From: a virus
Lineage: Duplodnaviria; Caudoviricetes
Direction: 5' to 3' (one strand)
DNA length: 64,000 bases
IMG/VR virus record: IMGVR_UViG_3300025890_003315
Span: 1-64,000 of that record
The notes under the pieces are model-generated. The model ran no database searches. It was not told the DNA's origin and saw only the letters and a list, made by a program, of their open reading frames with translations. A program made the translations under genes and the position numbers. This document shows positions 23,848-51,821 of this stretch, piece after piece; positions within the stretch are counted from its first letter, which is position 1; every line of letters begins with the position of its first letter.

Positions 23848-24959
23848 AATAAACTTTCGTGTCTTAAAAATTTGATTTCTCCGTTGCTTTTACTTTCAAA
23901 CTCTTGCATTGAACAAATTGCAGAAATACCGTTTCTTGCATAATCTAAAACTTTATCTTCTCCCAAATAAACAGATATGTGACAAAAGCCTTTGGCAAAA
24001 TTGTAAGAATTAGACAGTATTATGTCATGTTTTCTTGGATCGCTCACTTCAATAAAATTTCTATTTAAGTAAAAATCTACTAAAACCATCGCATCTTCAT
24101 TTTGCCAATATTCTTTACACTTTTTGATAAAAGCTTTATTGAATCTATGAAACCTGAATGGGTGGTTCATAGTCGGAAAGTCTATGTTTAATTCTTTTTT
24201 ATAATAATCCTGAGCTAAAGAAGAGCAATCGACAACACCGGGAACCAATGTCCTGCCGATGTAAGCGAGTTCTTTTTGCGGGAGAAAGCACTTGAATTCG
24301 TCAGTCAAAACATTGTATAATATATACTTTGTTTGAGTTTTTGTGGAAACTTGTTCATCTGCATCTGAAAAAGTAGCATATTCGTCTTTACAATGAGAAT
24401 GAAAAACAAATTCGACTTGCTCTTTGTATTTTTCTGACTCTGATTGTTGAATTGCGAAGAAATTTATTTTATCAGAAGATTTATTCTCGCAGAAAACAAC
24501 TTGGCCATTTTTAAGACCAAGACCGCAAGCTTCTTCTGGGTACTTTTCTAAACAATACTTTTTGATAGTTTCTTTCTGACTTTCAGTTAAATTGTCTTTT
24601 GGATTTTTTGAGACATACAAATCAATTGAGTCTTCTGACTCATCTGGTCGAATAATTTTAAATTTTTGATTTTTTCCGCTGAAAATGATGAGCGGCATTT
24701 GGTAGTTTTTTTGATTGAATTTATCATTGAGAGATGCTTCGGAAAAACTATCTGGATGAGAATGATAAACAGCCCAAGCTCCAAGATCTTTGGCTTTCAA
24801 GTAGTCAACTGGCGAAATTGTAAAATTGGAAATTTTATCTTTAGCTTGATTGTTGCATTTGAGTATCGTGTCTGGTAAAACAAAGCCACAACATTCTTCT
24901 GGATAAATTTCTTCAGAATGTTTTTTAATTTCTTCTTTTTGTTTGTTAGATAAAATCAT
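23844..24959 (-). CDS. Tail assembly protein K-like with two JAB/MPN domains plus NlpC/P60
   Basis: EECCG...HSHPDSFSEASLND; EEACG...HSHCKDEYATFSDAD; then DCSSL...HISVYLG. Confidence 0.85.
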   Translation of the reverse strand: MILSNKQKEEIKKHSEEIYPEECCGFVLPDTILKCNNQAKDKISNFTISPVDYLKAKDLGAWAVYHSHPDSFSEASLNDKFNQKNYQMPLIIFSGKNQKFKIIRPDESEDSIDLYVSKNPKDNLTESQKETIKKYCLEKYPEEACGLGLKNGQVVFCENKSSDKINFFAIQQSESEKYKEQVEFVFHSHCKDEYATFSDADEQVSTKTQTKYILYNVLTDEFKCFLPQKELAYIGRTLVPGVVDCSSLAQDYYKKELNIDFPTMNHPFRFHRFNKAFIKKCKEYWQNEDAMVLVDFYLNRNFIEVSDPRKHDIILSNSYNFAKGFCHISVYLGEDKVLDYARNGISAICSMQEFESKSNGEIKFLRHESLL

Positions 24960-26038
24960 GTTTTATTAACTGCTGGAAAACCTCCGTATGGCAAAACTCC
25001 TTGCCATCTAAGTTTGCATCCTTGGATGCTTTTTGAACATTGATCTGCTATCCAATAATCAGTATTTGGTGGAGCAGTATCCAAATTCGGAGCATGTTCC
25101 ACTTTGCATACAAAATGATATTCAACCCCATTTTTTGTTATAAATACCATTTCTCCAGCTGTATAATTTGACCCTTTGCCTTTGTCCCATAAACTTGGTG
25201 CTGGAAGATTTGGATTTAACCTTAAAATTCCATTTTGATTGTTTGGTGATTCATCGAAAATTCTTTCATTTAAATCGGTAGCAACTGGTGTATAATTTGA
25301 ATTTTTAGGGTTTAAAATCCCACGACTTGTAGTTCCGTGTGTACTAGCTGATAAGTTATTAGTATAACAACATCCTTCTCCTCTGTATTGCCACTGACAT
25401 CTATCTTGAATAACCAGTCTTTTTGGAACGCCAAAATTTTCCAAGTCAATGGAACTGGTCATTTCAAAAGAAAGAGTTTGATTTGACTCACTAGTTTTTC
25501 TGTCGATATAATAAATATCGTAATTTAAAATTGCATTTGGATCTGGATCGTGATCTTTTATAAGTGAAGTTAAAAAAGAACTGTTTTTTCCGTCTGGATC
25601 AGAGCCGTCAATAAACTTTGCGAAAGTTCTTATTCGTGTAAATTTTGCTCCGGTTAGATCACCTATTTGAGCCAAAACTGTTTTCAGTTTAGAAAGAGCT
25701 TTTACTCCATCTGATTTTACAGCAATAGACATTGTTGGCCTCGGTAGCGAGCCTTTTGTTGCTAGCTCAAATCCTTCTACTGCTACAGGAGCGGCAATAT
25801 ACTCTTTATCGTTAAAATAAATACTTCTTGTTGTTAATGATATAGAGTTGTGAAATCTGAATATTCTATCGTTTTCATTATCTTCGGTTGAATTTCTAAT
25901 TCCTAAATCAAATTGAATATCAGAAGTATCTATTTCAAAGAAGTCAATTACAGCAGAAGGATCGATAGAATTGGCTTCCTTAGCAGCTTTTTTTATGCTG
26001 CTTCTAGCTTCTGCCGGTGTCATTGAGTAGTCAGCCAT
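24956..26038 (-). CDS. Minor tail protein L (lambda gpL-like)
   Basis: PVAVEGFE...PRPTM, TRIRTFAKFIDG, CQWQYRGEGCCY, DQCSKSIQGCKLRW...YGGFP. Confidence 0.92.
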   Translation of the reverse strand: MADYSMTPAEARSSIKKAAKEANSIDPSAVIDFFEIDTSDIQFDLGIRNSTEDNENDRIFRFHNSISLTTRSIYFNDKEYIAAPVAVEGFELATKGSLPRPTMSIAVKSDGVKALSKLKTVLAQIGDLTGAKFTRIRTFAKFIDGSDPDGKNSSFLTSLIKDHDPDPNAILNYDIYYIDRKTSESNQTLSFEMTSSIDLENFGVPKRLVIQDRCQWQYRGEGCCYTNNLSASTHGTTSRGILNPKNSNYTPVATDLNERIFDESPNNQNGILRLNPNLPAPSLWDKGKGSNYTAGEMVFITKNGVEYHFVCKVEHAPNLDTAPPNTDYWIADQCSKSIQGCKLRWQGVLPYGGFPAVNKT

Positions 26039-35496: not shown

Positions 35497-36582
35497 ATGT
35501 TTAAGTCCCTCAACTTACCAATAAATTCGGTCAGTTTTGGTCAAGTGTCAACTGCCCTGCTTCGTAAATTCTACGAGGCAGGGCTTTCGCCTAATCTTTT
35601 TACAATCGGACAAGTAGACTTATCTTCTCAAAAGCAGGATAAAGACTTTGTTGCTTGGATTCAAGATTGTGTGAATAAAGCTGGCAAAAAGCACTCTAGA
35701 GATGTTCCAATTTTTAAATTGTGGCATATCATGCAGTCTCTTGAGTCTTTCAGCAAAGAACAAGTTCTTTTTACATTCTATGAATTGGATCAACCAACAG
35801 AGTTGGAACTTAATATCTTAACTAACAATAAAAAAGTTTGCGTATCTTCAAACTACACAAAACAAGTTTTTGAAACTTTCGGATTATCAAATGTTCAATA
35901 TATCCCACTTTTCTTTGATAAAAGTAACTTTAATAAAACAAGCAAAGAATATCACCCAGAAAGAATAGTTTTCAATATTGCTGGAAAATTCGAACATAGA
36001 AAACATCACACCAAAGCTATTAGAACGTGGTTAAACAGGTATGGTAATAACAATGAGTATTTTCTTCAGTGTGCTATTTATAATCCTCATTTAAAACCAG
36101 AAGATAATCAAAAGATCATCAATGAAATAACTCAAGGAAAACAATTTTTTAATATTAATTTCCTTAGCAGAATGGAGCAAAATCAAGCTTATAACGATTT
36201 TCTTAATTCAGGAGATATCATCATAGGGGCTTCTGGAGCAGAGGGATGGGGCTTACCTGAATTTCAGAGTGTATGTTTAGGTAAACACGCTGTTATTATG
36301 AACGCACATTCTTACAAAGATTGGGCGAATAAAGACAACGCTTGTTTGTTTGAGCCAAATAGCAAGGTTCCAGCTTATGACAACATGTTCTTCAAACAAG
36401 GCCAAGAAATCAATCAAGGCAATATTTTTGATTTCAGTCCTGATAACCTTATTGACGCTTGCGAAAGAGCAGTACAAAGAGTTAAAGACCAAAAAGAAAA
36501 TACGAAAGGTCTAGAACTTCAAGAAAAATTCTCTTTAGACTTTTTCTATGAGAATATAAAATCTTTGTATGCCTCTTTATAG
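35497..36582 (+). CDS. Glycosyltransferase, GT-B (GT4-like)
   Basis: SFGQVS N-terminus, IAGKFEHRKH, and AEGWGLPEFQS donor-binding motif. Confidence 0.85.
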   Translation: MFKSLNLPINSVSFGQVSTALLRKFYEAGLSPNLFTIGQVDLSSQKQDKDFVAWIQDCVNKAGKKHSRDVPIFKLWHIMQSLESFSKEQVLFTFYELDQPTELELNILTNNKKVCVSSNYTKQVFETFGLSNVQYIPLFFDKSNFNKTSKEYHPERIVFNIAGKFEHRKHHTKAIRTWLNRYGNNNEYFLQCAIYNPHLKPEDNQKIINEITQGKQFFNINFLSRMEQNQAYNDFLNSGDIIIGASGAEGWGLPEFQSVCLGKHAVIMNAHSYKDWANKDNACLFEPNSKVPAYDNMFFKQGQEINQGNIFDFSPDNLIDACERAVQRVKDQKENTKGLELQEKFSLDFFYENIKSLYASL

Positions 36583-38961: not shown

Positions 38962-38977
38962 GGCGATTAAAACCCCA

Positions 38978-39012
38978 AAGCCTCTCGTTACACAAAACGG
39001 GAGGCTTTTTTA
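38978..39012 (+). terminator. Rho-independent terminator after nrdJ
   Basis: AAGCCTCTCGTT-ACACAA-AACGGGAGGCTT followed by a T tract. Confidence 0.85.
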
Positions 39013-39735: not shown

Positions 39736-39763
39736 TTGACATTTTCATAGTACCACGTATAAT
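39736..39763 (+). promoter_or_regulatory. Sigma70 promoter heading the glycan island
   Basis: TTGACA-N16-TATAAT, 5 nt before the GTG at 39769. Confidence 0.8.
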
Positions 39764-39768
39764 AAAAC

Positions 39769-40659
39769 GTGAAAGTTTTTGTATGTGGTATCACTCAAAA
39801 TCAGCTTAATAACATTACTGGTTTAGTAAAGTCGTCACAAGACTATGTTGACGGCTTTATTTTTGTTGATGGTTTATCAACTGATGGCACGTTTGAATTT
39901 CTAGAAGCCAATAAAAAAGAAGGTAAAATCATCCAAAGAGAATGGTCTAACGATCATGATCTTCAAATGAATCTTTTTCTCAGATCGAACGTCATGAAAA
40001 ATGGCGACTGGTTCTTTGTAAGAGATAGTACGGAAAGAGTTTCTGAAAATTTCTTAAAAAACATAAAGCTTTCAATCAAAGATTTTGAGCTTCAAGGCGT
40101 CACTTCGCTTTATATTCATAATAAAATTTTCCTTTGCAAGTATTCCGACTACCTTTATTTTAACGGAAGTCCGCATTGGGGTCTTCACGGCATTCAAGGT
40201 AAATCTGTTTCTCTTGATGCAGAGGATTCATTATATAAGAACAAGCTTGATCTTTTTGAATCAGATGTAAGACAAGATAGAGGAGAGGGTTGGCAAATCA
40301 ATCAAAATATAAAATATTATTTTTGCTACGGTCGATCAAATAATCAGTTGATGCACTATTACGACAATGGCAAAACTCCAGAACTATACAAACAAAAAGA
40401 AGGTGATAGAATAAATTTTAGAAATATTTGTTTCAATTTAGGCATCGAATTTTCACTTTCTAGCTTAAAGCAGTTTATCGAACAAAACGGAATATTAAAT
40501 AATGATCTTCTGCCATTTTTTAAAAATGAAATTCTATTGAAAAATTGGTATAGATTTAACATTTTAGATCATTCAGAGGCGGAAATAAATGACTCCAATT
40601 TTTTTAACACAGAGAAAGCTAAATGGGAAACTAATTGGGAGTTCCAAGCTATAAAATGA
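39769..40659 (+). CDS. Glycosyltransferase, GT-A (GT2-like)
   Basis: FIFVDGLSTDGTFE and WFFVRDSTE (degenerate DxD); GTG start. Confidence 0.75.
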   Translation: MKVFVCGITQNQLNNITGLVKSSQDYVDGFIFVDGLSTDGTFEFLEANKKEGKIIQREWSNDHDLQMNLFLRSNVMKNGDWFFVRDSTERVSENFLKNIKLSIKDFELQGVTSLYIHNKIFLCKYSDYLYFNGSPHWGLHGIQGKSVSLDAEDSLYKNKLDLFESDVRQDRGEGWQINQNIKYYFCYGRSNNQLMHYYDNGKTPELYKQKEGDRINFRNICFNLGIEFSLSSLKQFIEQNGILNNDLLPFFKNEILLKNWYRFNILDHSEAEINDSNFFNTEKAKWETNWEFQAIK

Positions 40660-41387
40660 ATCAGGATTTTTATTTAAATTATAGAGAAGCAAAGTCTTTC
40701 TATTGCGCTGTAGATATGGGGGACTTGGTATATTCTTTGCTTTTCGCTAAATATAAAAATGTTGACACAATTTATCTGGACGATACTAAAAAAGGAATTA
40801 GCAATAGAAATTTTAATGAAGCGTCTAGAAAATTTATCGAACCACTTTTATTGTCTCAACCTTATATAAGAAAAATAGAGAAATATACAAATCAAGTTTT
40901 TGATATAAACTACGGAGAGCATCAAAAAGCGGATGTTGTAGTCGGAACAAACCTAACAGCATTTCATGCCAGCAAATTTAATTTAGAGTGTGATTCAAAA
41001 GAAGTTAATGAAAGTTGGCTTGAATGTCCATCAACTGATACTGGTAAAAATATAGTGATAAATAGATCTCTCAGGTACAGAGGAGATGCTAATTTTTATT
41101 TAGATTTCTTTAAACATATAAATCCGCAGAAATGTGTTTTTGTTGGATTGGAAGAAGAATACGAAGATTTCATTAAAACATTTAGGTATCCAGTAGATTA
41201 CAAGGCGAGCGAAAACGCCTATGAATTAATGATGGCAATAAATTCTTGCGATGTGTTTTTTGGCAATGAATCTATTTCGTGTGCCATCGCTAAAGGGCTT
41301 GGGAAAACTTGTTTTGTTGAGTTGTGTAGACAAGCAGCGAACTACATTTTTACGGGCAACAAAAAAATAAATTATTTTGGAATATGA
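40656..41387 (+). CDS. Putative glycosyltransferase (GT9/heptosyltransferase-like)
   Basis: DMGDLVYSL N-terminus; AINSCDVFFGNESISCAIAKGLGK; ATGA-coupled. Confidence 0.6.
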   Translation: MNQDFYLNYREAKSFYCAVDMGDLVYSLLFAKYKNVDTIYLDDTKKGISNRNFNEASRKFIEPLLLSQPYIRKIEKYTNQVFDINYGEHQKADVVVGTNLTAFHASKFNLECDSKEVNESWLECPSTDTGKNIVINRSLRYRGDANFYLDFFKHINPQKCVFVGLEEEYEDFIKTFRYPVDYKASENAYELMMAINSCDVFFGNESISCAIAKGLGKTCFVELCRQAANYIFTGNKKINYFGI

Positions 41388-42091
41388 AAATCGCTTTACT
41401 AAACATTTATACTGAAAACATAAAACAATTAGCTGTTATAACAACTGAATACAATAAAAGGAAATATTGCGAAAAGCATGGATATGATTTACTTGTTAAA
41501 ACAAAAGATTTTTCATATAAAGATTTCGGATTTGAAAAAATTAAATTTGTCCTAGACACAGTTAAGTCTAACAAGTACGACTGGATTTTGTGGGTTGGTT
41601 CAGATACTATGATCACTAACTACAACATCAAAGTAGAACATTTAATTGATGAAGAGAAAAGTTTTATTATCGCTAACGATGTTTGGGATTTCAATTCAGA
41701 TGTTTTCTTAATTAAAAATCATCCACGTTCTATAGAGTATTTTGAAGAAATTTTATCACTACATGATAAATATATAGACGAAAATGGTAAACCAAGAGAT
41801 CTTGGGGTTAGGCTCCCAGATGGAGGAGCTAGATGTTGGGCAGAACAAGAAGCAATGATAGACTTAAAAGAAAAATATAAAGATGCTATTAAAATAGTTC
41901 CACAAAAAATATTAAACTCTTATTTATATCATTTGTATCCTTCTCAGTGGCATCAAAAAGGTTTAGACTGCGAAGGCTATGATGGAAGGTGGAGTGAGGG
42001 CGATTTTATTGTGCATTGGCCGGGAATGAACAATGAACTAAGATTAAATCTAGCAGTAAATTTTATACCAAAGGTTAAAGGAGATGAGTAA
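41384..42091 (+). CDS. Glycosyltransferase, GT34 (MNN10/GMA12-like)
   Basis: KRKYCEKHGYDL, YDWILWVGSDTMITN, FNSDVFLIKN, WAEQEAM, GDFIVHWPG. Confidence 0.8.
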   Translation: MKIALLNIYTENIKQLAVITTEYNKRKYCEKHGYDLLVKTKDFSYKDFGFEKIKFVLDTVKSNKYDWILWVGSDTMITNYNIKVEHLIDEEKSFIIANDVWDFNSDVFLIKNHPRSIEYFEEILSLHDKYIDENGKPRDLGVRLPDGGARCWAEQEAMIDLKEKYKDAIKIVPQKILNSYLYHLYPSQWHQKGLDCEGYDGRWSEGDFIVHWPGMNNELRLNLAVNFIPKVKGDE

Positions 42092-43391
42092 TGATACTTC
42101 TATTTCGCAGCTTGTAAGTGAAAGTCTGCAAAATAAAAAAAAGTGGATAAAAGGCGAAGATTGGGTCCAGTATGCTGGCCCATTCTTTTCTAACGAAGAA
42201 TACGAAGCTGCTATTAATTCTATTTTAAACGGCTGGCTCGTTATGGGCAATGATTGTTTAAAATTCGAAAGCAAGTTTAGTAAATATTTGGGAAAAAATC
42301 ATGGAGTTTTAACTAACAGCGGATCAAGCAGTAACTTACTTATGGTTAGCGCACTTTCTTCAAAAAGAGCCTATGCGCTTCCTAAAGGATCAAAAGTTAT
42401 TACTCCAATTGCTGGATTTCCCACAACCTTAAATCCCATCTTACAAAATGGTTTTGATCCAGTTTTTGTAGACATTGAACTTGAAACATTGAATCTTGAT
42501 TTAGATCAAGTTGAAGAAGCCGCTAAAGCCGGGGCTAAAGCTATTGTTTTTGCTCACGTACTTGGGAACACGACTGATATCGATAGACTTCTTAGCATAG
42601 TAAAAGAATATGGGCTAATTTTCCTAGAAGACTGCTGTGACGCCTTGGGATCTACATACGATGGAAAGCCGCTTGGCTCTTTCGGAGACATGTCTAGCTG
42701 TAGCTTCTACCCAGCGCACCATATAACGATGGGAGAAGGGGGATACGTAGCCTGTAAAGATAAAAATCTTGAAATCATAGTTAGGAGTTTTAGAGAATGG
42801 GGCAGAGGATGCTTTTGTGTAGGCAAAAAAGCTAATTTGCTCAAAAATGGCTCTTGTGGAAAAAGATTCTCTAATTGGCTGGAAGCTTTTCCAGACAAAG
42901 TATTCGATCATAAATATATTTATGATGAAATAGGATATAACTTGAAACCAATTGAACTTCAAGGTAGCATTGGATTAAAACAGCTTGATAAACTAGATCA
43001 GATTCATTCTTTAAGAAAGAAGAACTACTCAAAGCTATTTTCCATATTCAAGCCGTATGAAGAACATTTTATTCTTCCAGTAGCCAGAAAAAAAGCTGAT
43101 CCGAGTTGGTTCGCATTTCCCATTACCATCAAAGACGATGCTCCATTCCAAAGGTTTGATTTATGCAATCACCTTGAGTCAAACAAAATACAAACAAGAA
43201 CTTATTTTGGTGGGAATCTTGGTTTACAGCCAGCTTATAAAGATGTGATTTCAACAGAAAAAGCTTTGACATTTAAAAATGCTACGAAAGCAACTACAGA
43301 TACATTTTTTCTTGGAACTAGTCCAGTAATAACAGATGAGCAACTCGACTATATAGAAGAAATCGTAAATTCTTTTTTTAGTAAATTATGA
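42084..43391 (+). CDS. rfbH: NDP-4-keto-6-deoxyglucose 3-dehydrase (E1, PMP/[2Fe-2S])
   Basis: NSGSSSNL, GFPTTLNP, EDCCDALG, SFYPAHHITMGEGG (His in place of the aminotransferase Lys), GRGCFC...C, GYNLKP. Confidence 0.92.
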   Translation: MSNDTSISQLVSESLQNKKKWIKGEDWVQYAGPFFSNEEYEAAINSILNGWLVMGNDCLKFESKFSKYLGKNHGVLTNSGSSSNLLMVSALSSKRAYALPKGSKVITPIAGFPTTLNPILQNGFDPVFVDIELETLNLDLDQVEEAAKAGAKAIVFAHVLGNTTDIDRLLSIVKEYGLIFLEDCCDALGSTYDGKPLGSFGDMSSCSFYPAHHITMGEGGYVACKDKNLEIIVRSFREWGRGCFCVGKKANLLKNGSCGKRFSNWLEAFPDKVFDHKYIYDEIGYNLKPIELQGSIGLKQLDKLDQIHSLRKKNYSKLFSIFKPYEEHFILPVARKKADPSWFAFPITIKDDAPFQRFDLCNHLESNKIQTRTYFGGNLGLQPAYKDVISTEKALTFKNATKATTDTFFLGTSPVITDEQLDYIEEIVNSFFSKL

Positions 43392-44359
43392 AAGTCGTAT
43401 ACGTAACAGGATGTCTTGGATTTATAGGTTCTTATGTTACAAGGCTGTGCCTCCAAAAAGGTTGGTATGTAAAGGGTGTAGATAAAATCACCTATGCAGC
43501 CAATAAAAACCTTTTAAATGAATTCAATAAATACTCTAATTTTTCATTTGTCAATTGCGACATAAACGATTTAAAGTTTTTGTACGACTGTGATTACTTT
43601 ATCAACACAGCAGCGGAAACTCATGTTGGCAATTCAATTGTAGATAGTACTGACTTTGTTAAATCAAACATTGATGGCGTTCATAATATTTTAAATCTTT
43701 TCAGAAGCTATAGACAAGAGAATAACCATAAACCAGTATTCCTGCATTTTAGCACTGACGAAGTTTATGGGGACATAGACGAAGGCGAACATACTGAGAC
43801 AGATCTTTTGAAACCAAGCAATCCATATTCTGCCACAAAAGCTGCTGCTGATATGTTGATCTTGGCTTGGGCAAGAACATACAACATAAACTACGTTATC
43901 GTAAGACCAACAAATAATTATGGAATAGGTCAATATGTAGAAAAATTGATCCCAAAGTCAGTAAAATTTCTTTCTTTGGATAGAAAAATTCCACTTCATA
44001 ACAATGGTTCACCAGTTAGGAATTGGCTTCATGCTGAAGATACCGCAAATGGAGCGATCAAAATAATAGAGTCTGAAGTTATAAATGAAGTATTCAATAT
44101 ATGTGGAGGATACGAGCAAACTAATTACCAAACAGTAGAAAAAATAATCAAACATTTTTACGCTATAGATGGAAAACAAGCGTTATCTCAAGATCAAATT
44201 GACAAAAATTTAGATTTTACTTACAGTAGGGTTGGACAAGATGTTAGGTACGCTCTAAATGATAATAAACTAAGATCTATTGGATGGAGTCCCAAACATA
44301 ATTTTGACAATGATATCCACGATATAGCAAAATATTATAAAAATACATTTATATGGTAA
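43388..44359 (+). CDS. rfbB: NDP-glucose 4,6-dehydratase (RmlB/RfbB-like)
   Basis: GCLGFIG, AAETHV, STDEVYG, YSATKAA, RNWLHAED. Confidence 0.85.
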   Translation: MKVVYVTGCLGFIGSYVTRLCLQKGWYVKGVDKITYAANKNLLNEFNKYSNFSFVNCDINDLKFLYDCDYFINTAAETHVGNSIVDSTDFVKSNIDGVHNILNLFRSYRQENNHKPVFLHFSTDEVYGDIDEGEHTETDLLKPSNPYSATKAAADMLILAWARTYNINYVIVRPTNNYGIGQYVEKLIPKSVKFLSLDRKIPLHNNGSPVRNWLHAEDTANGAIKIIESEVINEVFNICGGYEQTNYQTVEKIIKHFYAIDGKQALSQDQIDKNLDFTYSRVGQDVRYALNDNKLRSIGWSPKHNFDNDIHDIAKYYKNTFIW

Positions 44360-46104
44360 AAATTAGTGATACAATAGCGGACTTTTTAGTTAAGCAAGGC
44401 ATCGAAGTTGTTTTTGGAATTATAGGTTCGGCTAATTCATATATCTATGACTCAATAGATAAGAGGACTGGTATTAAAATTGTTCCTACCCATCATGAGC
44501 AAGCTGCCGTAATGGCAATGGGAGCTTATTATAGGTCCACTGGAAAAATGTCAGCAGCCTTAGTTACTGCTGGTGGAGGGTCATCAAATGCATTTACGGG
44601 CATACTTTCTAATTGGGCGGATTCAATACCCGGAATAATCATAGCAGGACAAGAGCAGACGCACTACATCGATGAATATAAAGACATGAGGATGTATGGC
44701 ATTCAAGGGTATGATTCAGTTGAAACTTATAAAAAATGCACTAAATTATCTATACGTCTAACTAAAGATAATGTAATCAAAACTTTAGCATTAGCTTATA
44801 AAATCACAAATAGCCAGCGCCCCGGCCCAGTATATCTAGAAGTACCATTTGATACACAAAGTCAAATGGTAGAAGAAGTCAAATTATCTGAGTCAAGCGA
44901 TGCTATAGAAATTCCAAATAAAGAAGCAGAATATATTATTAGTAAATTAAACATGTCAAAACGGCCATTAATTCTAGGTGGTCATGGAGTAAAATTGTCA
45001 CATGCGGAAGATTTATTTAAAAAATTGGTTGACAAACACAGTATCCCTACAGTATTGACTTGGTCCGCTGTTGACTTATTAGCTACAGATAATCCTAATA
45101 ATTTTGGTAGACCGGGGGTACAAGGGCAGAGAGCGGCTAACTTTATTGTTCAAAATAGCGATTTATTAATAGTCTTAGGCAGCAGACTCTCTCTGTTGCA
45201 AACAGGGTACTCCAGAAAAGATTTTGCGCCAAAAGCAGAAATAATTCATGTTGATATCGACCCAACCGAAACTAAAAAATTTAATGGAAAAAATTTTAAT
45301 ATAGATGTCAATTTATTACTAAAAGAATTTGACAAGCTTGATTCTAGAATTGAAACTAACATAGACGACTGGAGACGTTACTGCGAGAATATAAAAAATG
45401 AATACCCACTAGTTATGCCAGAGCATCTCTCTGATCCAACTAATTCATATACATTCATTGATAAATTATCTAAGCTGCTGCCTGACAATTATACTGTTGT
45501 AACAGATATGGGGACCGCTTTACTTAGTGGATTCTATGGTTTTAATATAAAATCGAATCAAAAAATGTTCACTTCGCTGGGACTAGGAGAAATGGGATAT
45601 GGGCTAGCGGCGGCAGTAGGTGCTGGATTTGGAGATAAACCAGTTCTATGCTTAAACTGTGATGGTGGAATGATGATGAATCTGCAAGAGCTTCAGACGA
45701 TAAAAACGCATAATCTACCAGTCAAAATAGTCATATTTAACAATGATGGATACTTAATGATCAAGCATACACAAAAAATGCTTTTTGAAGGTCACAAGAC
45801 ATGCGTAGACAAGGAGACTGGAGTTGAACTACCCGATTACAAGAAGGTGGCGGAAGCATTTGGTTATTCATATTATAAAGAATCTCAAATCAGTGATTTT
45901 TTGAGCAGCCCAAACCAAGCAATTATGGAGGTATTTATGAGTCCAAATCAAGAATTTATACCTAAAGTGAAAGGTATGAAGCAGGAAGACAACACTATTA
46001 AAGCTGGTTTACTGGAAGAGATGTCCCCACTACTTCCACTAAAAAAAATAGAACAAGCAATGATAGCAGGAATCAATGAACGAAGTAGGCTAGCAAAAAG
46101 ATGA
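44353..46104 (+). CDS. ThDP-dependent acetolactate-synthase-like carboligase (YerE-like)
   Basis: HHEQAAVMA, GPVYLEVP, LGSRL, TDMGT, GEMGYG, CDGGMMMNLQEL...NNDGY (GDG-like ThDP motif); sugar-locus context. Confidence 0.85.
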   Translation: MVKISDTIADFLVKQGIEVVFGIIGSANSYIYDSIDKRTGIKIVPTHHEQAAVMAMGAYYRSTGKMSAALVTAGGGSSNAFTGILSNWADSIPGIIIAGQEQTHYIDEYKDMRMYGIQGYDSVETYKKCTKLSIRLTKDNVIKTLALAYKITNSQRPGPVYLEVPFDTQSQMVEEVKLSESSDAIEIPNKEAEYIISKLNMSKRPLILGGHGVKLSHAEDLFKKLVDKHSIPTVLTWSAVDLLATDNPNNFGRPGVQGQRAANFIVQNSDLLIVLGSRLSLLQTGYSRKDFAPKAEIIHVDIDPTETKKFNGKNFNIDVNLLLKEFDKLDSRIETNIDDWRRYCENIKNEYPLVMPEHLSDPTNSYTFIDKLSKLLPDNYTVVTDMGTALLSGFYGFNIKSNQKMFTSLGLGEMGYGLAAAVGAGFGDKPVLCLNCDGGMMMNLQELQTIKTHNLPVKIVIFNNDGYLMIKHTQKMLFEGHKTCVDKETGVELPDYKKVAEAFGYSYYKESQISDFLSSPNQAIMEVFMSPNQEFIPKVKGMKQEDNTIKAGLLEEMSPLLPLKKIEQAMIAGINERSRLAKR

Positions 46105-46964
46105 AAATAAAAGCTGCAATACTAGGTACAGGTAATATAGGTACAGACTTACTCATTAAAGCTTTAAAAACAGACTTTATTGAATTAGTAGCATTCGTAG
46201 GAAGAAGATTAGATTCTAGTGGAATAAGTATAGCTAGAAACAAAAACGTAAATACTTCTGATCAAGGGATAAAATACTTTATCGATAATCCTAAGTGTTG
46301 CGACATTGTTTACGACTGCACAAACGCGATAGACGCTAGAACTCATTCCGAGATATTTAAACAACAAGGAATAAAAGTCATTGATTTGACGCCAGCAAAA
46401 GTTGGAGATATGTGTGTCCCAGATATAAATAGCGAAATCATATTAACAGATATGAATATAAATATGATTACCTGCGGAGGACAAGCGTCTATACCAATGC
46501 TTCACTTGCTAGCAAAACACTGTAAAGGATTAGAGTATATTGAAATTGTATCTCAAATAGCTTCTAAAAGTGCTGGCATGGCCACCAGAATAAATGTTGA
46601 TAACTATATTAACACTACAAAAAAAGCTATTTCAAAATTCACTGGTTGCAATAATATGAAAGTTATTCTAAACTTAAATCCAGCAGAGCCTTGCGTAGAC
46701 ATGCAAACTACCATGTTTATCAAATCAAAATATGTTGAATATGAAAATTTAACAGAAAAGCTGCTAAACAAAATTGAAGAGTTGAAAGCTTATATACCGC
46801 ATTACGAATTAATTGTTCCCCCAACACCAGATGATAGCGGAATTCTAACCTTAAGCATAAAGGTTAAAGGCGCTGGAGATTATTTGCCTGAATATGCTGG
46901 CAATTTAGATATCATAAATTGTTCTGCAATTAAAGTAACAGAAAAATTAAAAGAAATTTTATGA
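46101..46964 (+). CDS. mhpF: Acetaldehyde dehydrogenase (acylating), DmpF/MhpF family
   Basis: GTGNIGTDL, IDLTPA, NMITCGGQAS, SAGMATRINVD, YLPEYAGNLDII. Confidence 0.95.
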   Translation: MKIKAAILGTGNIGTDLLIKALKTDFIELVAFVGRRLDSSGISIARNKNVNTSDQGIKYFIDNPKCCDIVYDCTNAIDARTHSEIFKQQGIKVIDLTPAKVGDMCVPDINSEIILTDMNINMITCGGQASIPMLHLLAKHCKGLEYIEIVSQIASKSAGMATRINVDNYINTTKKAISKFTGCNNMKVILNLNPAEPCVDMQTTMFIKSKYVEYENLTEKLLNKIEELKAYIPHYELIVPPTPDDSGILTLSIKVKGAGDYLPEYAGNLDIINCSAIKVTEKLKEIL

Positions 46965-47959
46965 AAAAAGTTACAATAACAGACTCAAGCTTGAGAGACG
47001 GGAATCATAGCGTCAAACACACTATAAGCTTAGACAGTATAGAAAAATATTGTAAATTTGCTGATAACGCAGGAATACCAATCGTTGAAGTTGGACACGG
47101 CAATGGCCTAGCAGCGTCTTCCCTATTGATAGGGAAATCTCCTAACACAGACGAAGAAATGTTGACTGTAGCAAGAAAAAATTTAAAAAATTCTAAATTA
47201 GGAATACATACGATACCGGGGTTATCTACAATTGACGATATTAAGCTTGCGATTAACTGCGGGGTAGATGTTTTTAGAGTCGCTACGCATTGTACTGAAG
47301 CAACACTATCGAAGACCCATATAGAGTACCTTAAAAAAAATGAAAGGACTGTCTATGGAGTTTTAATGATGACCCCTTTAGCAAGCTCAGACGAATTAGT
47401 TGAACAAGCTAAAATTATGGAAAGCTATGGAGCAGAAGCGGTAATCATAATGGATTCAACTGGAACATATTTGCCAAATAACGTAAAAGAAAGGATTGAG
47501 AAGCTCAAAGCATCTACCAATATCAGAATAGGGTTCCATGCTCACAACAACTTAGGCTGCGCAATTAGTAACTCTTTAATAGCAGCAGAATGTGGAGCAG
47601 ATTTAATTGACGCATGTATTCGCGGGTTTGGAGCGGGGGCAGGAAACGCCGCTTTAGAAGTGTTACTGCCAGTATTGGAAAAAAGTGGTTTTGAAACTGG
47701 AATTTGCTTTAAGCAGACAATAAAAGAAGCGGATAGCGCAATGGATTATTTGGTTACCAAAGTCCCATTAGTAAGTCCGATTAATATACTGACAGGGTTA
47801 GCTAAATTATTTTCTGGATTCGAAAAGCCAATCATTAAAGCGTCAAAACTATATGGCATAGAATACTCTTCTTTGATATTTGAGCTAGGCAATAGAAAAC
47901 TAGTCGCAGGACAAGAAGACTTAATTTTAGAGATAGCTCAAAAACTAAAAACAAAATGA
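46961..47959 (+). CDS. mhpE: 4-hydroxy-2-oxovalerate aldolase, DmpG/MhpE family
   Basis: DSSLRDGNH, EVGHGNGL, ATHCTEA, GFHAHNNLG, GAGAGN, VAGQED. Confidence 0.95.
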   Translation: MKKVTITDSSLRDGNHSVKHTISLDSIEKYCKFADNAGIPIVEVGHGNGLAASSLLIGKSPNTDEEMLTVARKNLKNSKLGIHTIPGLSTIDDIKLAINCGVDVFRVATHCTEATLSKTHIEYLKKNERTVYGVLMMTPLASSDELVEQAKIMESYGAEAVIIMDSTGTYLPNNVKERIEKLKASTNIRIGFHAHNNLGCAISNSLIAAECGADLIDACIRGFGAGAGNAALEVLLPVLEKSGFETGICFKQTIKEADSAMDYLVTKVPLVSPINILTGLAKLFSGFEKPIIKASKLYGIEYSSLIFELGNRKLVAGQEDLILEIAQKLKTK

Positions 47960-48732
47960 GAGTATTAATAACAGGCGGCGGCGGATATATCGCTAAATCT
48001 ATTCACGCAGCACTGAAGGATAATTATGTTATAGTTAACCCAAACAGACAAGAACTTGATTTAACCTGCAACCACTCGATTAAAAGTTTTTTTGATAAAC
48101 ATGGATATTTTGACGCTGTTATTCATACTGCAATAAAAGGAGGAAGCAGACTAAATGTGGATGATTGGTCTGTTTTAGACACTAATCTTTCGATGTATTA
48201 CAACCTATGTTCCAAAGAAAGGCATTTTAACAAGTTTATTAACATAGGATCAGGCGCAGAAATTTACTCCCCAGACACTCCTTATGGACTCAGTAAAAAA
48301 GCGATAGCTAAATCCATAGAATCGAAAAGCAATAAATATATAAATCTTAGGATATTTGCGGTTTTTGATGAAAATGAGCTTGACACAAGATTCATAAAGG
48401 CTAATATTAAACGAGCAATAAACGGCGAACCATTAGAAGTATACGAAGATAAGTATATGGATTTCTTTTACATGGAAGATTTTATAAAAGTGATCAAAGC
48501 TATTCTAAATTATAAAAATCATCAAAAAGAAATAAACTGCGTCTATGAAAAAAAATATAAACTTTCCGAAATAGCAAGCACAATAAATAACTTAAGTACT
48601 CATAAAGTGCCGATTTCTATTGCTCAACGTCAATCAGAAAATTATACCGGAGACTTTAATTTATCAATTCCTTATGTCGGTATGGAAAAAGGGATTGAGA
48701 TAGTTTACAAAAAAATGATTACTCAACAATGA
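47956..48732 (+). CDS. NAD-dependent epimerase/reductase (extended SDR)
   Basis: ITGGGGYIA, GSGAE, YGLSK. Confidence 0.85.
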   Translation: MRVLITGGGGYIAKSIHAALKDNYVIVNPNRQELDLTCNHSIKSFFDKHGYFDAVIHTAIKGGSRLNVDDWSVLDTNLSMYYNLCSKERHFNKFINIGSGAEIYSPDTPYGLSKKAIAKSIESKSNKYINLRIFAVFDENELDTRFIKANIKRAINGEPLEVYEDKYMDFFYMEDFIKVIKAILNYKNHQKEINCVYEKKYKLSEIASTINNLSTHKVPISIAQRQSENYTGDFNLSIPYVGMEKGIEIVYKKMITQQ

Positions 48733-48891: not shown

Positions 48892-49797
48892 ATGATATAC
48901 GACTGTTTTTTATTTTTTAACGAAAATGATTTACTTGAAGTAAGACTAAATCAGCATAATAAATTTGTAGATAAATTTATTATCGTAGAAGCAGCAGAGA
49001 CGCATACTGGAATCAAGAAAGATTTGTGTTTCGATCATAAAAGATTTGAGAGGTTCTCTGATAAAATTATTTATAGATCTATTCATTCATTTGAAGATGA
49101 AATCAAAAAAAATCCAAATTTAATATCACAAAATATATCAAATTTCATAACCCCGCAAAAACAATTGAATCATCAAGATTGGATCAGGGATAATTTTCAA
49201 GCGGAATATATAACAAAAACGCTACTTGAACAAAATCCAAATCAAGAAGATATAGTATTATTTAGCTGTTTAGATGAAATTTTAAACGAAGAAGCTTTTA
49301 TAGAGTGCCTATCAGTATTTAGCACTAATCAAAAGTTTTTTTTAAAATCAAAAATATTCAATAAATACGTTTTAGAAAAAAAGGTCGATCCTGTATTTTC
49401 ATTTGTTTTAGATACTTATGCTTATAAACTTAATTTGTTCCATAAACAAGTTCCAGTTGGAACCATGACAAAAGTTTCTAATCTAGCTTTTATGAAATGG
49501 ACTGAATTGAGATATTTCGCTTGCACAACGCATGAATTCATAGAAAACGCTGGATGGCACTTTACATTTTTAGACAACACAGATGGCGAAAAAGCGTTGA
49601 TGAAATATAAAAGCTGGGCGCATTCAAAAGACATTTCTTCAAATAGAAAAAGATATTTTGATATACAAACAAAGGAAGAAGCAGTAAACACTGTATTTAA
49701 AGATTATAATTTAAAAAAAGTAAACATCACAAAACAAAGCTACCCTAAATTTATAATTGAAAATTTAGAATTTTTCTCAGATTACATATACAAATAA
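48892..49797 (+). CDS. Glycosyltransferase GT17-like
   Basis: IYDCFLFFNENDLLEVRL...VDKFIIVEA, WIRDNFQ, SCLDEI, AGWHFTF. Confidence 0.85.
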   Translation: MIYDCFLFFNENDLLEVRLNQHNKFVDKFIIVEAAETHTGIKKDLCFDHKRFERFSDKIIYRSIHSFEDEIKKNPNLISQNISNFITPQKQLNHQDWIRDNFQAEYITKTLLEQNPNQEDIVLFSCLDEILNEEAFIECLSVFSTNQKFFLKSKIFNKYVLEKKVDPVFSFVLDTYAYKLNLFHKQVPVGTMTKVSNLAFMKWTELRYFACTTHEFIENAGWHFTFLDNTDGEKALMKYKSWAHSKDISSNRKRYFDIQTKEEAVNTVFKDYNLKKVNITKQSYPKFIIENLEFFSDYIYK

Positions 49798-49798
49798 A

Positions 49799-50182
49799 AT
49801 GATAAACGTATTTACAAATGGGTGTTTCGATGTAATACACGTTGCTCTCATCAGACTTCTTGAATTTGCAAAGAAACAGGGAGATCATTTAATAGTCGGA
49901 CTCAATAGTGACCGAAGCGTAAAGTCCCTAAAAGGAAACGGGCGACCGTTTTTTCATGAACAAGACAGGAAAGAGTTCTTAGAATCTATTCGTTTTGTTG
50001 ATGAGGTCATTATTTTCAATGAAGAAACTCCATACGAGTTGATAAAAAAGCTTAGGCCAGATATAATTATCAAAGGTGGTGATTATAAAGACGAAGATGT
50101 AGTCGGATCTGACATCGCTAAAGTAGTAATTTTTCCATTTGAAAATGGCTATTCTACTTCAAATATATTAAAAGATAAATGA
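49799..50182 (+). CDS. RfaE/HldC-type nucleotidyltransferase with degenerate HxGH motif
   Basis: FTNGCFDVIHVAL, LIVGLNSDRSV...KG..RP, KGGDY, GYSTS. Confidence 0.85.
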   Translation: MINVFTNGCFDVIHVALIRLLEFAKKQGDHLIVGLNSDRSVKSLKGNGRPFFHEQDRKEFLESIRFVDEVIIFNEETPYELIKKLRPDIIIKGGDYKDEDVVGSDIAKVVIFPFENGYSTSNILKDK

Positions 50183-50757
50183 AAAATATTATTCACATTG
50201 GATGCAATGATGGAAATGACCATGTTTTTAAATTTGTTTGCGAAAATAAAAAAGACATTGGCGAAATAATTTTGATCGACGCTAACTTTAATGTAATTTC
50301 AAAAGCTAGAGAAACATACAAGGAAATTAAGAACACAACATTTTTAAATTTAGCGATTACCCCAATTGATATAAACGGTTGCGAAATCGAAATATTTACT
50401 CCAATCACAGATGACTCATCAAATTTTGTTTCTGTAAATAGGGATTTTGTTAGAGCGCACGTTCACCATAATAATATACTTTCGACAAAAGTAAGAACCA
50501 TGAGTCTGCAAAATTTAATCGACCAATACAAAGATACAACCCATTTGTTCTTAGATACAGAAGGTCTTGACGTACTCAACGTATTTAGCGTGGACTTCGA
50601 TAAAAATAAGATCGAGGAATTAACTTTTGAATACATACACTCTGATGGAATCGTAAGACACGGCAAAAGGCTAAATTCATTGCTAGGGTATCTTGAACAA
50701 TTTGGGTTTTCGTTTGAAGTTGTACAATACAATGTAATAGCTAAAAGAAAAACGTGA
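50179..50757 (+). CDS. FkbM-family methyltransferase
   Basis: IHIGCNDG, IDAN, NLAIT, LFLDTEGLD. Confidence 0.75.
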   Translation: MKNIIHIGCNDGNDHVFKFVCENKKDIGEIILIDANFNVISKARETYKEIKNTTFLNLAITPIDINGCEIEIFTPITDDSSNFVSVNRDFVRAHVHHNNILSTKVRTMSLQNLIDQYKDTTHLFLDTEGLDVLNVFSVDFDKNKIEELTFEYIHSDGIVRHGKRLNSLLGYLEQFGFSFEVVQYNVIAKRKT

Positions 50758-51821
50758 AAAAAATAATCATCACAGGAATTTTAGGTCAAGACGGCGCGAA
50801 CATGGCAGAATACCTTCTGTCTTTGTATGATGAACTCGGTCTTGAAGAACATGATTATGAGATTTATGGCATGATGCGTAGATCTGCAAACCCAAATTTT
50901 AAAAACATCGAAAAAATTAAAAATCATCCAAGATTCAATTTACAGTTCCTTGATCTTGGTGATAGCGCAAGTATTGATACAGCAGTAAAAGAGATTCAGT
51001 CAGATTATTTTATTAATTTTGCCGCAAATAGTTTTGTTGGTATCAGTTGGAAAATGCCAGAGCAAGTTATGAATGTAAACGCTCTTGGTGTTTTGCGCTG
51101 CCTTGAAGCCATTCGCAAATTCAAACCAGATTGCCGATTTTACAGCGCAGGTTCAAGTGAAGAATGGGGCAATGTCGATTATAGCCCACAAGACATCGCT
51201 CATCCAATCAAGCCTCGTAGCCCTTATGGCGCGTCAAAAGCGGCAGCAAGACATCTTGTAAAGGTTTACAGAGAGTCCTACGGTCTCTATGCTGTTCACG
51301 GTATCCTCTTTAACCACGAAGGAACAAAGCGTGGAGAAGAATTTGTAACAAGAAAAATTTCAAAAGGAGTAGCTAGAATCAAAAACTCTATTGATAGAGC
51401 TATTGGGCTTGGAGATGAAATTTATATTGAACCAATCGAACTTGGAAATCTTGACGCAAAAAGAGACTGGTCAGATTCCAGAGACTTCGTAGAAGGTGTT
51501 TGGTTAATGCTCAATCAAGATACCCCAAAAGATCACATTCTAGCAAGTGGAGAAACACATAGCATCAGAGAATTTGTCGAAAAAGCTTTTGCTGTTGCTG
51601 GAATCAATGGATCTTGGCACGGACAAGGTCTCGATGAGGTATTTGTGACTGGTCAACAAACTTTAGTACGAATCAATTCAGATTTTTACAGACCGGCAGA
51701 AGTTGATCTTCTTTTGGGTGATTCAACCCCAATACGCGAAGAACTTGAATGGGAGCCGAAAATTTCATTTGACAAATTGGTAGAATCGATGGTACTATAT
51801 GACATCGAGAACCATGCCTGA
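50754..51821 (+). CDS. gmd: GDP-mannose 4,6-dehydratase
   Basis: ITGILGQDG, PRSPYGASK, GILFNHEG..RGEEFVTRKI, LGNLDAKRDW, RPAEVDLLLGD. Confidence 0.96.
   Translation: MKKIIITGILGQDGANMAEYLLSLYDELGLEEHDYEIYGMMRRSANPNFKNIEKIKNHPRFNLQFLDLGDSASIDTAVKEIQSDYFINFAANSFVGISWKMPEQVMNVNALGVLRCLEAIRKFKPDCRFYSAGSSEEWGNVDYSPQDIAHPIKPRSPYGASKAAARHLVKVYRESYGLYAVHGILFNHEGTKRGEEFVTRKISKGVARIKNSIDRAIGLGDEIYIEPIELGNLDAKRDWSDSRDFVEGVWLMLNQDTPKDHILASGETHSIREFVEKAFAVAGINGSWHGQGLDEVFVTGQQTLVRINSDFYRPAEVDLLLGDSTPIREELEWEPKISFDKLVESMVLYDIENHA

Follow-up and report, generated by a model that had tools for sequence, protein, structure and literature searches.

A probable phage-borne version of the erwiniose-type acyl-branched deoxysugar pathway

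What would a tailed phage make with a carboligase, an aldehyde dehydrogenase and a pyruvate aldolase embedded among sugar-nucleotide genes? The question is raised by a 64,000-nucleotide stretch of viral DNA (Duplodnaviria; Caudoviricetes), positions 1 to 64,000 of IMG/VR record IMGVR_UViG_3300025890_003315, which we refer to in its entirety as the window. At 42084-48732 it carries a cassette of six genes encoding, in order, an E1/RfbH-type 3-dehydratase, an RmlB-like nucleoside diphosphate (NDP)-glucose 4,6-dehydratase, a YerE-like thiamine diphosphate (ThDP) carboligase, an acylating acetaldehyde dehydrogenase of the DmpF type, a pyruvate aldolase of the DmpG type and a short-chain dehydrogenase/reductase (SDR). 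We consider it likely that this cassette gives the phage its own form of the erwiniose-type pathway, which yields acyl-branched deoxysugars. A preliminary description of the DNA had proposed that DmpF and DmpG operate in reverse to supply a hydroxy keto acid, that the ThDP enzyme transfers an acyl unit from it to C4 of a 4-keto-3,6-dideoxy sugar, and that the SDR then reduces the side chain. This mechanism is supported by the linkage of the genes, by a sequence signature in the aldolase and by an intact E1, whereas the acceptor sugar and its nucleotide are less certain than was stated there, because E1 is missing from some related phages and stands beside a GDP-mannose 4,6-dehydratase (GMD) gene in others.

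The six genes and a proposed route

The six overlapping open reading frames (ORFs) reported earlier for the cassette are all intact and on the + strand, neighbors overlap by 4-8 nt, and profile searches matched each product to its expected family (Table 1). The source element of the cassette is a phage. Genes for a 2071-amino acid (aa) tape measure protein, a J-like central tail protein and minor tail proteins lie 5' of the cassette, which is flanked by a class II ribonucleotide reductase (RNR) gene on one side and by genes for RecA, DnaB, primase, a PD-(D/E)XK nuclease and the DNA polymerase III (Pol III) alpha subunit on the other. The GC content of the cassette (0.35) equals that of the rest of the window.

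The bacterial precedent is found in Pectobacterium atrosepticum SCRI1043, where the YerE-like ThDP enzyme ErwE, the reductase ErwF, the BphI-like ErwI and the BphJ-like ErwJ are encoded beside the genes for CDP-4-keto-3,6-dideoxyglucose (Steitz et al. 2022, PMC9306805). ErwE (WP_011093010) rejects pyruvate and R-selectively uses 4-hydroxy-2-oxopentanoate, which it joins to a ketone analog of the sugar, and the erwiniose route of P. atrosepticum has been proposed and partly shown in vitro (PMC9306805). Bacteria thus already provide an established case of DmpFG working in reverse, and any novelty would have to lie in the viral setting.

Both members of the DmpF/DmpG pair in the window retain their catalytic residues. 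DmpF matches PDB entries 7z3s (237 bits) and 1nvm_B (196 bits) and keeps the catalytic Cys within ITCGGQA, and DmpG keeps the Arg, Asp and His of the RDG-x-H motif together with both metal-binding His. At the positions equivalent to BphI 87 and 290, the window DmpG has His and Phe. When 145 ThDP-linked aldolases (69 viral, 76 bacterial) were aligned with three catabolic DmpG/MhpE references, position 87 was His in all 145, and position 290 was Phe in 129 and His in 16, the latter all viral; the three references and PDB 8ih7 have Leu at 87 and Tyr at 290. BphI is strictly 4S-specific, the Y290F form loses 4S control, and the L87N/Y290F form becomes 4R-specific (PMC3962088). The His87/Phe290 pattern mirrors the engineered 4R-specific BphI and thus fits the R donor preferred by ErwE. 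To judge from the alignment, it appears to mark the ThDP-linked aldolases as a distinct biosynthetic subfamily, and the window DmpG most likely makes (4R)-4-hydroxy-2-oxopentanoate. The two residues also offer a simple sequence test, which separated the ThDP-linked aldolases from the four catabolic DmpG-type references examined.

The carboligase scored 475 bits with the structure of JanthE (8rph, residues 2-579), 251 bits with PpYerE (5ahk) and at most 230 bits with acetohydroxyacid synthase (AHAS) structures. With the NCBIfam AHAS models, its best scores were 314 bits (cut-off 738) and 310 bits (cut-off 538), and AHAS cut-offs range from 538 to 1084. The ThDP motif LNCDGGMMMN is identical in the window enzyme and JanthE, and CDGG is present in 155 of 159 ThDP homologs from the viral and bacterial loci described below. 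Since nearly all of these homologs adjoin DmpFG, the physiological donor of JanthE may itself be 4-hydroxy-2-oxopentanoate.

The best PDB match of the first gene product is Yersinia E1 (3bcx, 350 bits). E1 enzymes are defined by a His that replaces the PLP-binding Lys and by four Cys that bind a [2Fe-2S] cluster (PMC8987622). Both features are present in the phage protein, as the preliminary description had recognized: the motif SFYPAHHITMGEGG, identical to that of Yersinia E1, places His at the aminotransferase Lys position, and Cys185, Cys243, Cys245 and Cys258 align with the cluster Cys of Yersinia E1, with a 5-residue insertion before the last. We take the Yersinia cluster residues to be Cys193, Cys251, Cys253 and Cys261. 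The assignment of the second gene product as RmlB-like also holds, its score with the dTDP-glucose dehydratase model being well above that with the CDP-glucose model (Table 1); its top 10 PDB matches are all dTDP-glucose 4,6-dehydratases, and TDE and YxxxK motifs are present. An AlphaFold model of the SDR, built on a 28-sequence viral alignment, has a pLDDT of 96 and most closely resembles GDP-fucose synthase, Campylobacter heptose C4 reductases and RmlD (TMq up to 0.82). The modeled fold can be assigned with confidence to the NDP-sugar reductases; a role as ketoreductase of the branch C1' carbonyl is predicted from gene position and fold.

Scans of the window covered nearly all ORFs of at least 200 aa, the ORF at 24956-26038 being scanned with PHROGs alone. 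Among the ORFs scanned there were no aromatic-catabolism genes (hydratase, decarboxylase, dioxygenase), no sugar-1-phosphate nucleotidyltransferase of the NTP_transferase family and no E3-type reductase (NAD_binding_1), in line with the absences noted in the preliminary description; E3-type reductases were likewise not found in five related phage genomes.

By analogy with the bacterial route, we infer the following chemistry for the phage. The dehydratase would convert host-supplied NDP-glucose, probably dTDP- or UDP-glucose given its RmlB-like character, into an NDP-4-keto-6-deoxyhexose, from which E1 would remove the 3-hydroxyl. As no E3 is encoded, the electrons would come from a general ferredoxin/flavodoxin system of the host. 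SpnQ, an E1 homolog acting on a dTDP-sugar, is served by general reductases of ferredoxin or flavodoxin instead of an E3 (PMC8987622), so the missing E3 is not fatal to the scheme. DmpF would reduce acetyl-CoA to acetaldehyde, which DmpG would join to pyruvate to give 4-hydroxy-2-oxopentanoate, most likely in the 4R form. The ThDP enzyme would decarboxylate this keto acid and attach the resulting 3-hydroxybutanoyl unit at the sugar's C4 carbonyl, and the short SDR would reduce the side-chain ketone to form NDP-3,6-dideoxy-4-C-(1,3-dihydroxybutyl)hexose, a product with the same constitution as erwiniose. Transfer of the sugar to virion proteins or to a host surface glycan would finally fall to glycosyltransferases encoded alongside, among them the GT34-like and GT17-like proteins. 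No Wzx/Wzy-type families turned up in the window scans, which weakly favors direct glycosylation of soluble acceptors such as virion proteins.

Linkage and distribution of the cassette genes

To place the cassette among its relatives, we compared 78 viral loci, kept from more than 100 IMG/VR relatives and 42-83% identical to the window ThDP protein, with 80 bacterial loci from many phyla (41-58% identity), kept from 213 relatives in species-representative genomes. DmpF and DmpG are encoded within 6 kb of the ThDP gene in 69/78 viral and 76/80 bacterial loci, and the same ThDP-DmpF-DmpG order is found in 43 and 37 of them, respectively. In 44 viral loci and a single bacterial locus, the gene immediately upstream of the ThDP gene encodes an RmlB-like dehydratase. 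A true E1 is encoded nearby in 31 viral (at least 50% identity) and 57 bacterial loci (36-50% identity), an SDR of the phage type is found near the ThDP gene in 52 viral loci and in no bacterial one, and all six genes occur together in 20 viral loci and in none of the bacterial loci. The sole bacterial locus with an RmlB-like dehydratase (68% identity) is a 6.6-kb contig in an Ignavibacteria metagenome-assembled genome (MAG) (L079); its ThDP enzyme falls inside the viral clade, and it is probably a viral contig that was mis-binned with a bacterial genome. The two bacterial clusters that were annotated, L140 and L127, encode an NTP_transferase, a dehydratase 21-26% identical to that of the phage and 350-aa SDRs, a gene set that corresponds to the architecture described by Steitz et al. 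(PMC9306805).

The window ThDP enzyme is 41-46% identical to the sampled enzymes of bacterial clusters. A phylogenetic tree of the ThDP enzymes, which the preliminary description had singled out as informative, was constructed with FastTree and rooted on Salmonella IlvB; its supports are local SH-like values only. Nearly all of the viral enzymes group apart from the bacterial ones, in one 60-row group (support 90), and the bacterial enzymes form another group of 83 rows (support 98) in which four viral sequences are nested. The window enzyme falls within a clade that is almost entirely viral.

Of the five large related viral contigs, four are T4-like, each having a gene for the Gp23 capsid protein, and among these is a complete genome of 162 kb bounded by terminal repeats. 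The recurrence of the cassette in T4-like phages rules out an assembly chimera. The RNR, RecA, DnaB, primase, Pol III and tail J genes of the window have no counterparts beside the cassette in the related loci, nor in five related genomes. Because its T4-like carriers lack homologs of the Pol III and tail J proteins of the window, the cassette is a mobile module that is exchanged among unrelated phage lineages. None of 50,697 GenBank phage records carries the cassette; all that the ThDP enzyme and the aldolase match there are distant sequences (at most 36% identity), and those that are annotated correspond to host-type genes such as ilvB, leuA and a Salmonella aldolase contig. Full-text literature searches returned no paper linking YerE-like enzymes or DmpFG to phages.

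Several loci depart from this layout. Viral locus L061 (10001-15662) encodes a GDG-type ThDP enzyme without DmpFG, followed on the 3' side by two HpcH/HpaI aldolases, an LdpA-like 4Fe-4S protein and an SDR; to judge from this gene content, the carboligase scaffold appears to be paired here with another module for keto-acid supply. In L043 (9045-12564) and L044, an RmlB-like dehydratase, a CDGG ThDP enzyme and a phage-type SDR are encoded in a row with no aldolase or dehydrogenase, which is a yersiniose-like layout. These viral sub-clades without DmpFG (L061, L043, L044) are long-branched within the viral clade. Such natural module swaps are what a 'unifying scheme', in which one carboligase scaffold is served by different keto-acid suppliers, predicts. 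A 21-row viral clade (L035-L068, e.g., L035:5190-13700), some of whose contigs were binned into giant-virus MAGs, shows the gene order SDR-DmpF-ThDP, with DmpG encoded on the other strand; E1 is replaced there by a 29-33%-identical DegT aminotransferase, often accompanied by a GT34-like gene, and the group may represent an amino-sugar variant. In the complete 162-kb T4-like genome (L014:7182-8987), the RmlB-like dehydratase gene is immediately preceded by a 601-aa ORF that begins with a sugar-1-phosphate nucleotidyltransferase domain and also gives a weak HAD-like match, and so some phages do encode the activation step. On the pSym plasmid of Paraburkholderia phenoliruptrix (L163:8108-13321), genes for DmpF, a His87/Phe290 DmpG, an SDR, a carboxymuconolactone-decarboxylase-family protein and a ThDP-binding protein are clustered with no sugar-nucleotide genes nearby; the aldolase/ThDP pairing there may serve a non-sugar product.

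Acceptor, donor and rival explanations

Several observations weigh against the erwiniose-type reading. Two related phages, G001 and G002, have all of the cassette except E1 and encode only a 36%-identical aminotransferase. In loci L007-L010, L019 and L025/L026, E1 is followed directly by GMD and not by an RmlB-like gene (L008:1994-4356; TIGR01472 395 bits). These two arrangements imply that E1 may not always feed the ThDP enzyme, and, given the E1-GMD adjacency, a GDP-sugar may be the substrate of phage E1 enzymes. To our knowledge, there is no precedent for E1 activity on a non-CDP 4-keto-6-deoxyglucose. For the carboligase, a review calls the CDG motif of JanthE 'unique', which hints that ErwE itself is of the GDG type and belongs to another subclade. 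JanthE, the closest solved homolog, is promiscuous and also takes pyruvate, so donor specificity is not readable from homology. Finally, the phage SDR has no significant similarity to the approximately 350-aa SDRs of bacterial cluster L127, the one cluster compared.

The first rival explanation leaves the branching unchanged and alters the acceptor. The ThDP enzyme would act on an NDP-4-keto-6-deoxyhexose that retains its 3-hydroxyl, and E1 would belong to a separate route, for example, with the GMD encoded at 50754-51821, leading to a colitose-like 3,6-dideoxyhexose. The dehydratase-ThDP-DmpF-DmpG-SDR set of G001 and G002, complete without a true E1, would be explained in this way, as would the E1-GMD pairs, which lie 6-7 kb from the ThDP gene in the loci that have them; the window also encodes a GMD, and the invariant upstream neighbor of the ThDP gene is the RmlB-like gene rather than E1. 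However, the window E1 gene overlaps both the GT34-like and the RmlB-like gene, is translationally coupled to the latter and so belongs to one continuous series of coupled genes; E1 and ThDP genes occur together in 57/80 bacterial and 31/78 viral loci; and the published routes to yersiniose, erwiniose and caryophyllose propose a 3,6-dideoxy-4-keto acceptor. We consider an acceptor that retains the 3-hydroxyl unlikely.

The second explanation alters the donor. In a yersiniose-type reaction, a C2 unit would be taken from pyruvate, and DmpF/DmpG would have an unrelated function, such as adjusting the balance of acetaldehyde, pyruvate and acetyl-CoA in the infected cell. Pyruvate is the substrate of YerE and is accepted by JanthE, and the dehydratase-ThDP-SDR arrangement of L043/L044 does without an aldolase. 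Against this stand the near-invariant linkage of ThDP, DmpF and DmpG genes in 145 loci from viruses and many bacterial phyla, the rejection of pyruvate by ErwE, which has the same gene context (PMC9306805), the non-catabolic His87/Phe290 signature of the aldolase, and the replacement of DmpFG by other aldolases in L061 rather than its plain loss. A pyruvate-derived branch is therefore highly improbable, and 4-hydroxy-2-oxopentanoate is the donor we propose for the erwiniose-type pathway.

That the genes are ordinary metabolic ones, an acetolactate synthase and a meta-cleavage DmpFG that were acquired from a host or mis-assembled, is hardly credible, even though public sources label homologs 'acetolactate synthase' and NCBIfam names DmpF and DmpG as catabolic enzymes: AHAS was rejected on scores far below the cut-offs and on the lack of an adjacent regulatory-subunit gene, the neighbors of the ThDP gene being those for the dehydratase and DmpF; a catabolic DmpFG was rejected on His/Phe in place of Leu/Tyr and on the lack of a meta-cleavage context, the scanned window ORFs having yielded no gene for a hydratase, decarboxylase or dioxygenase; the ORFs in question overlap those of sugar-nucleotide enzymes and match the phage in GC content; more than 40 independent viral contigs, a complete T4-like genome among them, repeat the layout; and the ThDP enzymes form an almost wholly viral clade.

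The glycan island and comparison with known systems

The cassette lies within a larger co-directional glycan island (Table 1). The perfect sigma-70 consensus match that follows a strong terminator-like hairpin at its upstream boundary suggests that the island is transcribed by the host RNA polymerase. The GT34-like protein is a candidate transferase for the branched sugar; in 16 viral loci, a homolog (23-35% identity) is encoded no more than 10 kb from the ThDP gene, and in L069-L071 its gene immediately adjoins the module. Homologs of the GT17-like protein are encoded near the cassette in 7 viral loci, and further glycosyltransferase genes of the window are located at 35497 and 62105. On the 3' side, the region at 49799-51821 encodes a 127-aa heptose-1-phosphate adenylyltransferase-like protein (TIGR02199, 152 bits, below cut-off), a 192-aa protein without assignment and the GMD already mentioned (TIGR01472, 337 bits, below cut-off); these genes seem to belong to additional sugar pathways encoded by the island. 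There are no tRNA genes in the window and hence no hint of the host from that source.

Table 1. Positions of the cassette genes and of neighboring features of the glycan island in the window
Feature	Position	Strand	Evidence and remarks
Terminator-like hairpin	38977-39008	+	13-bp stem then T-run, after RNR gene; upstream boundary of glycan island
Sigma-70 promoter-like site TTGACA-16-TATAAT	39736-39763	+	12/12 consensus matches, 6 nt before first island gene
Possible glycosyltransferase, first gene of co-directional island	39769-40659	+	Weak PHROG beta-1,4-glycosyltransferase match, E 3.5e-5; no Pfam match
250-aa protein	40635-41387	+	Overlaps both neighbors; no Pfam or PHROG match
GT34-like glycosyltransferase	41384-42091	+	PF05637, E 8.6e-15; overlaps E1 by 8 nt
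E1/RfbH PMP- and [2Fe-2S]-dependent NDP-4-keto-6-deoxyhexose 3-dehydratase	42084-43391	+	NF011936 463 bits, cut-off 423
RmlB-like NDP-glucose 4,6-dehydratase	43388-44359	+	TIGR01181 280 bits, below 365 cut-off; CDP-glucose model 78 bits
YerE-like ThDP carboligase (JanthE type)	44353-46104	+	Three TPP_enzyme domains; CDG ThDP-binding motif
DmpF/BphJ/ErwJ-type acylating acetaldehyde dehydrogenase	46101-46964	+	TIGR03215 313 bits, cut-off 282
DmpG/BphI/ErwI-type class II pyruvate aldolase	46961-47959	+	TIGR03217 338 bits, cut-off 286; DmpG_comm PF07836 60 bits
Short extended SDR, 258 aa	47956-48732	+	Epimerase/RmlD Pfam matches; GGGGYIA and YGLSK motifs
GT17-like glycosyltransferase	48892-49797	+	PF04724, E 1.1e-15; downstream of cassette

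Acyl-branched sugars such as erwiniose, yersiniose and caryophyllose occur in the surface glycans of bacteria and mycobacteria. If the erwiniose-type reading is correct, tailed phages of several lineages carry their own version of such a pathway, as the more than 40 independent viral contigs with the ThDP-DmpF-DmpG order would indicate. The biochemistry is already known from bacteria, and the parts that vary in the phages are the type of dehydratase, the reductase, the missing nucleotidyltransferase and E3, and the almost wholly viral clade of ThDP enzymes. Phages may display exotic sugars, or impose them on their hosts, with effects on adsorption, superinfection exclusion or recognition. Genes labeled 'acetolactate synthase', 'acetaldehyde dehydrogenase' and '4-hydroxy-2-oxovalerate aldolase' in viromes are, in such a context, probably glycan genes rather than auxiliary genes of central metabolism. 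For the preparation of tertiary alcohols and (4R)-4-hydroxy-2-oxoacids, the viral ThDP enzymes and the His87/Phe290 aldolases also offer many naturally occurring candidate catalysts. More tentatively, we speculate that unrelated phages (the siphovirus-like phage of the window, T4-like myophages and the giant-virus-binned contigs) share a virus-adapted branched-sugar module that works on a non-CDP carrier, with an E1 acting on a dTDP-, UDP- or GDP-sugar without E3, and that the product is placed on virion proteins and not on lipopolysaccharide, which would amount to a widespread unseen class of surface glycan.

The phage pair resembles DmpFG, BphIJ and MhpEF in folds, in catalytic and metal-binding residues, in the DmpF Cys, in the communication domain and in gene adjacency. 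It differs in being predicted to work in the synthetic direction, in having His/Phe at the positions of Leu87 and Tyr290, and in lying outside a meta-cleavage context; on plasmid pLIB119, hydratase and decarboxylase genes are found near the catabolic pair, in contrast to the phage window, where none are nearby. With the yersiniose A pathway of Yersinia pseudotuberculosis (DdhA-D, YerE, YerF), the cassette shares 3-deoxygenation by E1, ThDP-dependent branching at C4 and a subsequent ketoreduction, whereas YerE takes pyruvate to form a C2 branch, and the Yersinia pathway is CDP-linked, possesses an E3 and needs no aldolase or dehydrogenase. The erwiniose cluster of P. atrosepticum has in common with the phage cassette a ThDP carboligase beside BphI/DmpG and BphJ/DmpF enzymes, a reductase, an E1 and the same retro-biosynthetic logic. 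The phage version is distinguished by its viral host, by an RmlB-like dehydratase instead of one of the CDP-glucose type and by the lack of a nucleotidyltransferase and E3 in the window, so that only E1 is present there of the erwiniose set for CDP-4-keto-3,6-dideoxyglucose (cytidylyltransferase, CDP-glucose 4,6-dehydratase, E1 and E3). JanthE of Janthinobacterium sp. HH01 (8rph/8rpi/8rpj) is the best solved match to the phage carboligase and has the same CDG motif; JanthE is a bacterial enzyme that is promiscuous in vitro, whereas the gene context of the phage enzyme points to 4-hydroxy-2-oxopentanoate as its donor.

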